A DNA stretch of 11,595 nt from a virus (IMGVR_UViG_2698536392_000001:1-11595), one strand, 5' to 3'. Positions 2,666 to 10,877 are shown, counted from the first letter of the stretch. The notes: generated by a model from the sequence alone, not told the origin. Numbers and translations are program-made.

Positions 2666-3073
2666 AATTATCTCCATTTTTACAAATGAATTTTGTCGAT
2701 GCGGTGCCTGGTGCCTCCAGGTGACGTTAACCAGTTAACAATTAACGCCGGATAATCCACCCATAACACTGATGCTTTTAACTGTGCCGCGTGCGCTTAG
2801 CCGCATTCACCGCATCACAAAATTCACTTTAAAAAGGGGCGGCAGGGCAGCTACGGAGTAGAACTGATGCCGCCAAAGACTAGACACAGCAATGTCGTTA
2901 TTTACAACCGGAGGCGCACTCCCACCATTTAAATTTAACAGACAAGACCGACTCTTTATGGATACCGGAAATGCGCCTTCGTGTTGTGCCCGGTTTTATT
3001 TCACCACCTCCGGGCTTTGGTGGCCTCGGCTATACCCCTACAGCAAGAATATTGAATTAATCCAATAAATGGT

Positions 3074-9161: not shown

Positions 9162-9806
9162 ATGAGCGCTATAACCAAAGAACGTATCAAATTATTCATT
9201 AAAAATCCGCTTGATAACGGACTTACTCGTGGCGAACAAATGGAACTGGCACGAATTGCACTGGCATCACTGGAACGCGAACAGATTCGCCACGAGCATG
9301 CCAAATGGTCTGACTCCACATTTGGCTGCGTTGGCCCCATTGGTCCGCTGAAACATCTCTCAAAAGAGGCACTGGAAGCCGCAGCCGAACCAGACGATCT
9401 TGGCGAGTGGGCTGATATGCAGTTTCTGTTGTGGGATGCACAGCGCCGTGCTGGCATCAGCGATGCTGAAATTACCGCTGCTATGGAAGATAAATTGAAG
9501 ATCAACATGAAGCGCCAGTGGCCTGAACCAAAAGATGGTGAGCCTCGCTTGCACATTAAAGAACCCGGCAACTCTCCGGTAACTCCGGATGGTTGGATAA
9601 GCTGTAGTGATCGAATGCCTGAAAAGGGCCAGAACGTGCTTATTTCGGTGAATTTCGATAGCTCTCTGGTTGAACCGCTAATATGCTCTGCACGCTATAC
9701 CGGAAGCACATTCCGGCGAGGAGATGCAACGATTAAGCCGGGTAATGGTATTGAGCAGGCAACTCACTGGATGAAATTACCGGAACCGCCGCAGGAGGTG
9801 AGCTGA
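9162..9806 (+). CDS. MazG-like all-alpha NTP pyrophosphohydrolase domain (DUF550-like) fused to a C-terminal DUF551-like domain
   Basis: N-terminal LKHLSKEALEAAAEPDDLGEWADMQFLLWDAQRRAGISDAEITAAMEDKLKINMKRQW fits the MazG/HisE-type EExxE ... ExxD ... K.x.N.xR pattern. C-terminal WISCSDRMPEKGQNVLI ... ATHWMKLPEPP resembles the DUF551 signature (recollection). AGGAGA ribosome-binding site 6 nt upstream. Confidence 0.6.
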   Translation: MSAITKERIKLFIKNPLDNGLTRGEQMELARIALASLEREQIRHEHAKWSDSTFGCVGPIGPLKHLSKEALEAAAEPDDLGEWADMQFLLWDAQRRAGISDAEITAAMEDKLKINMKRQWPEPKDGEPRLHIKEPGNSPVTPDGWISCSDRMPEKGQNVLISVNFDSSLVEPLICSARYTGSTFRRGDATIKPGNGIEQATHWMKLPEPPQEVS

Positions 9807-10201
9807 TGGAAAATGAAGGCGATAATATCATCACACTGGTGCAGCCAAAGCGCGATGAAGAGAAGCTGCTGAACATTACAGTAACTGGCAGAAAAAACTA
9901 CACACAACAGAGCTGTAAGCATCGGGCCATTGAGGTTCATGAACAGGATCGCGTTATCCTGTGCTTGCAGTGCGGATGTGTTGTGGACCCTTTTCAGTAT
10001 GTTCTGCGGTGTGCGAACGATGGTGAGGCTGTGGTGAGAGAGATTAGACAGCTTCATAACAGACGCGATCAGCTCCGCGAATCTGTTGCCAGCCTCGAGC
10101 GTGAAGAAAAGAACACCAAAGCACGGTTGCGGGCAGCAAGAACTGCAATACTGTATGCGGAAAATGACCTTAAAAATATTGAGCAGAAGGTGAATCAATG
10201 A
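9806..10201 (+). CDS. Hypothetical protein with a Cys/His zinc-ribbon-like motif and C-terminal coiled coil
   Basis: SCKHRAIEVHEQDRVILCLQCGCVVDP, then a heptad-rich helix REIRQLHNRRDQLRESVASLEREEKNTKARLRAARTAILYAENDLKNIEQK. AGGAGG 7 nt upstream; start overlaps the previous stop. Confidence 0.55.
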   Translation: MENEGDNIITLVQPKRDEEKLLNITVTGRKNYTQQSCKHRAIEVHEQDRVILCLQCGCVVDPFQYVLRCANDGEAVVREIRQLHNRRDQLRESVASLEREEKNTKARLRAARTAILYAENDLKNIEQKVNQ

Positions 10202-10275
10202 CCTGGCCTGAAGCATTCACAACGGTAGGAATCGCGGTGGCGCTGGTGGTGTATTCGATTTGCCGCTGGGGATAA
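10198..10275 (+). CDS. Putative 25-aa single-pass hydrophobic peptide, translationally coupled to the upstream ORF
   Basis: ATGA overlap with the upstream stop; MTWPEAFTTVGIAVALVVYSICRWG has an 11-residue hydrophobic core; AAGGTGA 4-5 nt upstream. Below the ORF-track size cut-off. Confidence 0.35.
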   Translation: MTWPEAFTTVGIAVALVVYSICRWG

Positions 10276-10282
10276 AAACGGT

Positions 10283-10310
10283 TTGCGGGAAAAGGAGAGT
10301 TAAGTAGAAT
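10283..10310 (+). promoter_or_regulatory. Candidate promoter of the hok mRNA
   Basis: TTGCGG (10283-10288), 16-bp spacer, TAGAAT (10305-10310). The predicted 5' end near 10318-10321 starts GCTTGAGGCTATCTGCCTCAGG, which resembles the hok mRNA 5' element of plasmid R1 as I recall it. Confidence 0.45.
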
Positions 10311-10369
10311 TGCAGCGGGTGCTTGAGGCTATCTGCCTCAGGCATGATCACCAAAAGGCAGATAGAGAA

Positions 10370-10437
10370 AAGCCCCAGTTAACATTACGCGTCCTGCAAG
10401 ACGCTTAACATTAATCTGAGGCCATATCTATGCGACA
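10370..10437 (-). ncRNA. Candidate Sok-like antisense RNA (approximate extent)
   Basis: Minus-strand promoter: -35 TTGACC (plus 10472-10467), 18-bp spacer, -10 TAATCT (plus 10448-10443). The predicted start near 10436 gives a transcript antisense to the mok-like start region. I could not define the 3' end or terminator by eye. Confidence 0.3.
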
Positions 10438-10489
10438 CATAGAGATTAGCCTCTTACGGACCGAAAGGTCAAGGAGAAGCAGGCTATGA
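10430..10489 (+). CDS. mok-like upstream ORF (19 codons) whose stop overlaps the hok start codon
   Basis: ATG 10430 with GAGG 8 nt upstream; its UGA stop overlaps the hok AUG (cuAUGAag), a geometry consistent with coupled translation as in hok/mok systems. Confidence 0.45.
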   Translation: MRHIEISLLRTERSRRSRL

Positions 10490-10641
10490 AGCAGCAAAAG
10501 GCGATGTTAATCGCCCTGATCGTCATCTGTTTAACCGTCATAGTGACGGCACTGGTAACGAGGAAAGACCTCTGCGAGGTACGAATCCGAACCGGCCAGA
10601 CGGAGGTCGCTGTCTTCACAGCTTACGAATCTGAGGAGTAA
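10486..10641 (+). CDS. hokD: Hok/Gef-family type I toxin (51 aa), closest to HokD/RelF in my recollection
   Basis: MKQQKAMLIALIVICLTVIVTALVTRKDLCEVRIRTGQTEVAVFTAYESEE: N-terminal transmembrane helix plus the conserved C-terminal Hok motif. AAGGAG ribosome-binding site 9 nt upstream. Below the ORF-track cut-off. Confidence 0.85.
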   Translation: MKQQKAMLIALIVICLTVIVTALVTRKDLCEVRIRTGQTEVAVFTAYESEE

Positions 10642-10709
10642 GAGACCAGGCGGGGGAGAAATCCCTCGCCACCTCTCATGTGTCAGGCATCCTCAACGCA
10701 CCCGCACTA

Positions 10710-10732
10710 AACCCGCTTCGGCGGGTTTTTTG
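10710..10732 (+). terminator. Rho-independent terminator of the hok transcript
   Basis: AACCCGC-ttcg-GCGGGTT followed by TTTTTT, about 70 nt after the hok stop. Gives a transcript of roughly 415 nt from the candidate promoter. Confidence 0.8.
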
Positions 10733-10877
10733 TTGCGCGCTGAATGCGCAGGGTGAAAAATAACCATATATTTGATTATATACACAACAAAAAATAAAAG
10801 TCATTGCACCTGCACATTAAACAATCAAATATACGACGTGAAATAAATATTTTTCAGATTAATATTTTTGTCTCTAT

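Follow-up and report, generated by a model that had tools for sequence, protein, structure and literature searches.

The cassette and its prophage setting

The window analysed here is the whole stretch of 11,595 nucleotides (IMGVR_UViG_2698536392_000001), and all positions are counted from its first letter. Near its 3' end lie the elements of a complete hok/mok/sok-type type I toxin-antitoxin cassette, and their coordinates are collected in Table 1. In a sequence search, a 450-nt region covering the locus matched the chromosome of E. coli O157:H7 strain Z1813 with 100% identity, and the RefSeq annotation of the surroundings identifies the host element as a Rac-like lambdoid prophage of E. coli O157:H7. 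The gene order of this prophage runs from recE through kil, a repressor pair, ydaT, ydaV and ead/Ea22-like genes to the hok gene, and continues with DUF1367/DUF1364/DUF1133 (Q-like) genes, followed by holin, lysozyme and terminase. The cassette is carried by the prophage as an accessory gene, with the replication/nin-like genes on one side and the Q-like antiterminator on the other, in a region for which RefSeq also annotates frameshifted and partial genes. At the locus itself, only the 51-aa CDS is annotated in RefSeq, as 'type I toxin-antitoxin system toxin HokD' (WP_000813255.1), and the mok ORF and the Sok RNA are unannotated.

Table 1. Coordinates of the elements of the hok locus in the window
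Feature	Position	Strand	Detail	Basis
hok/mok/sok-type type I toxin-antitoxin cassette	10283-10734	+ (hok sense)	complete
hok sense promoter	10283-10310	+	-35 TTGCGG 10283-10288; 16-nt spacer; -10 TAGAAT 10305-10310	direct reading, homology
Full-length hok mRNA (predicted)	10317-10734	+	about 418 nt	Rfam model start and terminator
tac	10317-10328	+	translational activator, GGGUGCUUGAGG	MFE pairing with 10691-10703
Sok antisense RNA (predicted)	10436 to 10368	-	about 69 nt	ends projected from annotated sokW of 933W
ucb / anti-SD box	10370-10376	+	AAGCCCC	MFE pairing with mok SD
mok SD	10418-10421	+	GAGG	8 nt upstream of mok ATG
Sok-target hairpin (predicted)	10427-10443	+	mok AUG in stem; loop CGACA	tac/ucb-constrained fold
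mok leader ORF	ATG 10430, TGA 10487-10489	+	19 sense codons, MRHIEISLLRTERSRRSRL	stop overlaps hok ATG (ATGA)
Sok promoter (candidate)	10472 to 10443	-	-35 TTGACC 10472 to 10467; 18-nt spacer; -10 TAATCT 10448 to 10443	homology to sokW
Hairpin sequestering hok SD (predicted)	10449-10480	+	GGAG 10473-10476 with CUCUU 10451-10455	MFE
hok toxin gene	10486-10641	+	51 aa	Pfam HOK_GEF; ORF call
TACG motif at Tyr47 codon	10624-10627	+	probable TadA A-to-I recoding site (Tyr to Cys)	invariance, homology
3' stem-loop (predicted)	10649-10670	+	would cap processed mRNA	MFE
fbi (fold-back inhibitory)	10691-10703	+	CCUCAACGCACCC	MFE pairing with tac
Intrinsic terminator	10709-10734 (hairpin 10709-10728)	+	8-bp stem, UUCG loop, T-run

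The preliminary description of this DNA had proposed a complete-looking hok/mok/sok locus embedded in the prophage, and all of the elements that it described were found in the sequence. Its 51-aa Hok/Gef-family toxin was borne out by the ORF and by the Pfam match given below, and its short upstream ORF with a stop codon overlapping the hok AUG runs from the ATG at 10430 to the TGA at 10487-10489. The sense promoter TTGCGG-16-TAGAAT is present exactly as written, the hexamers of the convergent promoter TTGACC-18-TAATCT lie on the minus strand, and the strong intrinsic terminator, a hairpin with a T-run, closes a transcription unit that had been put at about 415 nt and is estimated here at about 418 nt.

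The HokD annotation of this CDS is found across thousands of genomes in RefSeq. Sequences with 80% identity or more across most of the query were present in 3,949 of 5,426 complete E. coli genomes, at up to 9 places per genome. The hok-like places in these 5,426 genomes number 10,853 in all, and strain Z1813 has seven further hok-like places besides the window locus. A further 79 phage records contained related sequence, those of 933W, VT2-Sakai and many Stx phages among them.

The hok product matched PF01848 (HOK_GEF) with 82.9 bits (E=1.2e-23; cut-off 22) in the Pfam search; Hok-family models of NCBIfam matched only below threshold and added nothing beyond Pfam. Cys30 is present. The protein differs by a single amino acid from K-12 HokD (S49P), by 3 of 51 from HokW, and by 8 of 50 aligned residues from the hokC product. 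Inactivating substitutions relative to functional homologues, for which a comparison had been proposed beforehand, were not evident against K-12 HokD and HokW, and the protein lies 3 aa from the toxic HokW. HokW toxicity, and its neutralisation by sokW expressed from its own promoter, have been described (Takada et al. 2021, PMC8621323), and we infer that the window protein is toxic as well. For the comparisons below, a covariation set of 45 non-redundant homologues was used, taken from Escherichia prophages, Kluyvera, Citrobacter, Pseudocitrobacter, Photorhabdus, Pantoea, Erwinia and Kalamiella. In this set, the UACGAA around the Tyr47 codon is invariant. A-to-I editing has been reported at the homologous TACG of K-12 hokC/D/E, and the window motif is probably a TadA editing site, too.

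The sense promoter has the same sequence in 933W, and its -10 is conserved in Rac 442/2 and across loci. The sense transcript should start at G10317, the position at which the Rfam leader model described below begins. The terminator is common to the window, K-12 hokD and Rac 442/2, but is absent from 933W. A generic sigma-70 scan flagged neither the hok nor the Sok promoter, both of which fell below its threshold, because each has one hexamer matching at only 3/6 positions. By consensus alone, both promoters are no better than chance. The consensus match was therefore not counted as evidence, and the promoters are supported by homology and conservation. A weak promoter is as expected for hok.

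Leader RNA and the predicted Sok antisense RNA

The sense strand at 10317-10488 gave a full-length match to Rfam RF01794 ('sok') with 107.8 bits (E=2.9e-24; gathering score 59). Despite its name, this family describes the hok mRNA leader, because its consensus runs from the hok mRNA 5' end to the hok AUG. The predicted mRNA (10317-10735) had an MFE of -176.5 kcal/mol (z=-7.65). Across the 45 homologues, 89% of the cells of the predicted structure were paired, as compared with 36-46% when the partners were slid by 1-3 columns, and compensatory changes on both sides were found at 45 pairs. By the Rfam E-value, the fold z-score and these paired fractions, the whole set of elements is far beyond chance.

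The 5'/3' fold-back, for which RNA folding had been suggested as a check, appeared in the MFE structure as the pairing of tac with fbi, and it is supported by covariation: this helix is 92% paired in the 45 homologues, and its position-4 pair covaries (UA 33, CG 10). In the same full-length MFE structure, the mok SD pairs with 10372-10376 of the ucb, whose AAAGCCC core (mRNA positions 53-59) is invariant in 45/45 homologues and whose last C is at least 90% conserved. The hairpin that would sequester the hok SD (helix 8) is 96% paired among the homologues and lies wholly inside the mok ORF. The 3' stem-loop (helix 17) is 98% paired with 4 compensatory pairs, and mutations in the equivalent 3' stem of plasmid R1 destabilise the truncated mRNA.

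Constrained folding was applied to the mRNA with different 3' ends. The penalty for forcing the tac/ucb pairing was +12.1 kcal/mol in the full-length mRNA; it dropped to +3.1 kcal/mol when the RNA ended at 10690 and to 0.0 kcal/mol when it ended at 10680. In the open form with tac/ucb paired, the mok SD was released from ucb, and the hairpin containing the mok AUG (10427-10443) was formed. The unconstrained MFE structure of the mRNA trimmed to 10688 preferred a local 5' hairpin over tac/ucb; for R1, that local hairpin has been described as metastable and as belonging to the nascent transcript, not to the processed form. In these models the tac/ucb switch appears only with trimming slightly deeper than 10688. 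As modelled, the folding switch reproduces the published R1 model, in which the switch is triggered by 3' processing. Truncated hokW RNAs were observed for the Sp5 homologue (Takada et al. 2021, PMC8621323).

On the minus strand, the candidate Sok promoter hexamers and a hairpin with a U-run lie at positions homologous to those of the annotated and experimentally mutated sokW, with the promoter below the threshold of the generic scan. The window Sok -10 (AGATTA on the plus strand, 10443-10448) aligns with the sokW -10 TAACCT, as read from the 933W alignment and from the primer YO-421 of Takada et al., and in Sp5 the antitoxin effect was lost when the sokW -10 was mutated (Takada et al. 2021, PMC8621323). 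The -35 and spacer differ between the two loci, being TTGACC and 18 nt in the window and TTGCCT and 17 nt in 933W. Among the 45 homologues, the Sok promoter hexamers are conserved in position from Escherichia to Photorhabdus and Erwinia. The predicted Sok has a fold of -30.2 kcal/mol (z=-5.2), in which a single-stranded 5' tail of 13 nt is followed by a long hairpin and the U-run.

The loop of the predicted Sok-target hairpin is 2 nt shorter than that of 933W and contains no U, and the kinetics of Sok binding could thus differ. A YUNR U-turn motif in the target loop is said to facilitate Sok binding, reportedly from the work of Franch et al. This motif is absent from the window loop, and several other alleles likewise do not have it.

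A hypervariable patch surrounds the mok AUG at 10423-10442. Among 76 closely related prophage loci, the entropy in this patch was 0.7-2.15 bit per column, and the mean at the third-codon positions of hok in the same loci was 0.038 bit. The ATG and the predicted Sok start form invariant islands inside the patch, which coincides with the predicted Sok 5' tail and the loop of the target hairpin. In the three multi-copy genomes among the fetched loci, a small sample, a different patch allele was present at each copy.

The short mok frame and related loci

The GAGGC at the mok SD is invariant in the 45 sequences, and GAGG was identified as the mok SD by mutagenesis in R1. Both the mok SD and the mok ATG are conserved in position from Escherichia to Photorhabdus and Erwinia in the same homologues. 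An alternative start for mok was considered and rejected, since the hok frame has no start between its preceding stop and 10486, and the only SD-preceded start is that at 10430.

The spacing from the mok ATG to the hok ATG is 56 nt in the window, 57 nt in 933W and hokC, and 58 nt in Rac 442/2. A 56-nt spacing gives a 19-codon peptide ending on the hok AUG, 57 nt gives an in-frame, N-terminally extended Hok, and 58 nt gives an R1-like out-of-frame overlap. With any 56-nt spacing the mok frame ends on the ATGA overlap, because these Hok proteins begin with Met-Lys (ATGAA). Compared with 933W, the window lacks 2 nt just past the mok ATG and has 1 extra nt in the Sok -35.

The spacing was counted in 127 loci from IMG/VR and species-representative genomes, 122 of which had an identifiable mok. 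The 57-nt spacing was found in 99/122, 56 nt in 15/122, 58 nt in 7/122, and an unusual 48 nt in 1/122, and the remaining 5/127 loci were without a mok SD. According to the alignment, at least three different indels led to the 56-nt spacing. The window-type prophage allele carries a deletion in the loop, E. ruysiae and E. whittamii have another loop deletion, of 1 nt, in their hokC-type loci, and Erwinia and Kalamiella have lost 1 nt between the hok SD and AUG. At least 784 E. coli records contain the exact 68-nt mok allele of the window at 100% identity, and among the matches listed for this allele hok was annotated as intact in 40/40.

Mutagenesis of R1 showed that mok translation is needed only as far as the hok start. 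The short mok is expected to work, because the mok ribosome crosses the entire hok-SD hairpin before stopping on the hok AUG, and it probably couples hok translation via classical termination-reinitiation. The 19-codon mok is a common natural allele consistent with the published mechanism, and not an anomaly. The idea that the 56-nt spacing marks a frameshifted pseudogene was rejected on the allele frequency, the recurrence and the R1 mutagenesis.

The hokW-mokW-sokW locus of 933W and Sakai prophage Sp5 shares 93% nucleotide identity over 426 nt of the locus. With 933W, identity of 94.5% extends over 9765-10705, with the homology ending just after fbi. Because this identity spans the upstream gene, a small hydrophobic ORF and hok up to fbi, the cassette travels as a unit. 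The promoters, tac, ucb, mok SD, position of the candidate Sok promoter, hok-SD hairpin and fbi are alike in the two loci, and mokW, hokW and sokW are all annotated in 933W. Both loci are prophage-borne in O157:H7, but the place within the prophage differs. In addition, mokW is in frame with hokW and gives a 70-aa N-terminally extended Hok, whereas the window mok stops at the hok AUG.

In its tac/fbi clamp, its ucb anti-SD, the dependence of hok translation on mok and the convergent Sok promoter lying within mok, the hok/mok/sok locus (parB) of plasmid R1 corresponds to what was found or predicted in the window. HokW and R1 Hok share only 44% identity (Takada et al. 2021, PMC8621323). The mok frames of R1 and the window both have 19 codons upstream of the hok start; that of R1 continues out of frame across hok to 70 codons, whereas that of the window ends at the hok start. 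The preliminary description was thus correct about a long R1 mok overlapping hok. The R1 locus serves plasmid stabilisation, while the window locus is a prophage gene.

Among the K-12 loci, hokC (gef)/mokC/sokC belongs to the same clade, with an identical tac, an alignable leader, and sokC annotated at the homologous position. K-12 mokC is in frame with hokC at the 57-nt spacing, and the locus is chromosomal and outside a prophage, in contrast to the window locus. The fbi region of K-12 hokC is replaced, because IS186 lies just downstream. In Rac 442/2, mok overlaps hok out of frame.

K-12 hokD (relF, Qin prophage) is 97.7% identical in DNA to the window from the hok SD to the terminator (10472-10734), and both lie immediately before the Q region of a lambdoid prophage. 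The homology begins only at 10472, 14 nt before the ATG, directly after relE. Since relBE replaces everything upstream of 10472, K-12 hokD is without promoter, tac, ucb, mok, Sok promoter and Sok, which agrees with the preliminary description, where it was placed inside the relBEF operon without regulatory elements of its own. The window has the full ancestral-type leader and no relBE, and is not of the K-12 relBE-hokD type; the PGAP name HokD was given to its CDS because of the protein similarity to K-12 HokD. The same truncated relBE-hok arrangement was found in a few other loci, including a Kluyvera genome. The earlier proposal that the window copy retains autonomous regulation is supported, as judged from the sequence, by its own promoters, predicted antisense RNA, fold-back elements and terminator.

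Proposed mechanism and biological role

We are confident, short of certainty, that this hok/mok/sok type I toxin-antitoxin cassette, which belongs to the hokC/hokD/hokW clade, is intact and under autonomous regulation, and that it works by the mechanism proposed here. By homology to plasmid R1 hok/sok and hokW-sokW, the weak promoter would make a stable mRNA of about 418 nt, the 5' end (tac) of which would be clamped to its 3' end (fbi). In this closed form, the mok SD would be paired with ucb and the hok SD buried in the hairpin inside mok, so that no translation would occur. Slow 3' trimming would remove fbi, after which tac would pair with ucb, the mok SD would be freed and the Sok-target hairpin would form. 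While the prophage is present and transcribed, a presumably short-lived Sok of about 69 nt would pair across the mok start, blocking mok translation and exposing the duplex to RNase III. When the supply of Sok is stopped by loss of the element, transcription shut-off or prophage induction, the 19-codon mok would be translated. The mok ribosomes would melt the hok-SD hairpin and terminate on the UGA overlapping the hok AUG, and hok would then be translated. Finally, Hok would insert into the inner membrane and depolarise or kill the cell.

The roles on record for the family are post-segregational killing (plasmid R1), phage exclusion, and acceleration of lysis by hokW-sokW. With hokW-sokW, lysis was faster and phage release was twofold higher after mitomycin C (Takada et al. 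2021, PMC8621323). The biological role of the window locus is uncertain, because the E. coli chromosomal hok loci tested in the 1990s gave no post-segregational killing, as cited in a recent survey of Hok diversity. The most likely roles of the window allele would be prophage retention and/or help of lysis on induction, as for hokW-sokW.

A narrower view of the role, compatible with the proposed mechanism, is that the functional cassette would act as an accessory of phage lysis and release and not as an addiction or stress module. After mitomycin C, sokW vanishes, production of HokW depends on RecA, and the phage yield is halved without the locus (Takada et al. 2021, PMC8621323). The long identity to 933W includes the upstream gene, and in the window hok points the same way as the early-right genes. 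Neither the terminator scan nor the annotation showed a terminator separating the upstream gene from the hok promoter, and we may speculate that read-through on induction could thereby supply sense RNA of hok and also run into the convergent Sok promoter. However, the evidence on lysis comes from a single study of a related allele, at another position in another prophage, and the effect was twofold. Moreover, the prophage region of the window contains the frameshifted and partial genes. We consider an exclusive role in lysis to be possible but rather unlikely.

It is improbable that the locus is a relic, intact in sequence but dead, in which the mok-shortening 2-nt deletion or other changes uncoupled hok or weakened the recognition by Sok, leaving silent baggage. 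Such a state would be in keeping with K-12 hokA, C, D and E, which are reported to be inactive, and with the same chromosomal loci that gave no post-segregational killing. The 56-nt spacing is also a minority class among the loci with an identifiable mok, and the target loop of the window is shortened. Nevertheless, the mok stop overlaps the hok AUG and lies past the whole hok-SD hairpin, the exact allele occurs in its many records with intact hok, and the spacing recurs through three indels in Escherichia prophages, in the hokC-type loci of E. ruysiae and E. whittamii, and in Erwinia and Kalamiella. The remaining regulatory elements are all intact and conserved, and the inactive K-12 loci have visible lesions, such as IS186 by hokC and the leader loss of hokD, of which none is present here. 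It is hardly credible that hok stands alone without antisense regulation and that the hexamers resembling promoters and the upstream ORF surround it by chance. Both promoters fall below the generic scan threshold, and 19 codons are few enough for an ORF to occur at random, but this reading is effectively refuted by an Rfam covariance-model match spanning the entire leader, the conserved positions of the mok SD, mok ATG, ucb and Sok hexamers from Escherichia to Photorhabdus and Erwinia, the homology to the experimentally mutated sokW -10, and the covariation of the structure in homologues.

An intact and autonomously regulated cassette is a kind of element already known, being a textbook type I toxin-antitoxin system with a characterised near-relative, hokW-sokW. 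The discovery value is small, because hokW-sokW is near-identical and thousands of E. coli genomes already have the toxin CDS annotated. The value for annotation is that a locus named 'HokD' in RefSeq appears as a complete autonomous cassette, unlike K-12 hokD.

With somewhat more doubt than conviction, we suggest that the mok frame is evolutionarily free in the hokC/hokD/hokW clade and switches between 56, 57 and 58 nt by small indels, some of them in the hypervariable patch. The patch itself might be subject to diversifying selection against cross-regulation among co-resident copies (up to 8-9 per genome), with the change of frame as a tolerated by-product. A survey of Hok diversity from 2025-26 deliberately excluded Mok and Sok as hard to call, and the patch diversity may be undescribed for this reason; a census of mok frames and Sok-recognition alleles would fill this small gap. 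If the suggestion is true, the changes of the mok frame would confirm, by natural example, that mok translation need reach no further than the hok start. The common 19-codon allele is a natural counterpart to the stop-codon mutagenesis of R1, and is usable for studies of termination-reinitiation.

The hok cassette as part of a block shared with 933W

The hok cassette lies within a region that is homologous to the Stx2 phage 933W, which carries hokW-mokW-sokW (Takada et al. 2021, PMC8621323). The positions of the features discussed here are listed in the table. The homology includes the upstream gene encoding 131 aa, a small ORF and the cassette, and it ends at 10705, 2 nt past the mRNA 3' fold-back element, fbi, and therefore, the terminator hairpin is outside the shared unit. 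This extent of the sequence homology suggests that the cassette moves from one prophage to another as a single block, the 3' end of the mRNA marking a recombination boundary.

The small ORF encodes a hydrophobic peptide of 25 aa (MTWPEAFTTVGIAVALVVYSICRWG), and its start overlaps the stop codon of the upstream gene (ATGA). Its sequence is identical in the Sakai prophage Sp5 (primer YO-432), and 18 related loci have conserved 27-aa versions of it ahead of hok.

Positions of the features in the window
Feature	Position	Strand	Remark
DicF antisense sRNA	2837-2888	-	Rfam RF00039, full-length match
Block homologous to 933W	9765-10705		L002 (933W locus) 977-1923
Small hydrophobic ORF	10198-10275	+	unannotated
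Rfam RF01794 match	10317-10488	+	named 'sok antitoxin'
Hypervariable patch	10423-10442		flanks the mok AUG
TACG motif at the hok Tyr47 codon	10624-10627	+	codon TAC lies within TACG/UACGAA

Variable and invariant sites in the cassette

The hypervariable patch corresponds to the region of the Sok 5'-tail and target loop. Its entropy reached 2.15 bit per column, as compared with 0.038 at the third-codon positions of hok in the same 76 closely related prophage loci. Each copy had a different patch allele in the multi-copy genomes, although these were a small sample of three among the fetched loci. The UACGAA motif at Tyr47 of hok was invariant in the alignment (45/45 homologues). A-to-I editing by TadA, which recodes Tyr to Cys, has been reported at the homologous position of K-12 hokC/D/E, and the hok copy in the window is therefore probably recoded at Tyr47 as well.

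hok loci in other genomes

Four loci (L051, L055, L089 and L110; compare locus L004) have relE fused directly upstream of a leaderless hok. This K-12-type arrangement is not confined to K-12: further E. coli/IMG-VR contigs have it, as does a genome of Kluyvera. Sequences of E. coli-type hok with 96-100% identity were present in tiny contigs of unrelated genera, i.e., Acinetobacter idrijaensis (L100, 275 bp) and Xanthomonas pisi (L106, 431 bp), and in the Actinobacillus-assigned phage vB_Apl-pPE4 (H31). These three occurrences most likely represent contamination or mis-assignment, rather than the true host range.

Rfam matches in the window

DicF is located in Qin in K-12. In the window, the DicF match (55 bits; gathering score, 48) is between the kil and DUF1391 genes in the leftward operon of the Rac-like prophage.

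RF01794 matched the sense strand, and its consensus spans from the 5' end of the hok mRNA (tac) to the hok AUG. Therefore, RF01794 is a model of the hok leader, not of the Sok RNA, and its name can mislead automated annotation on the strand assignment.
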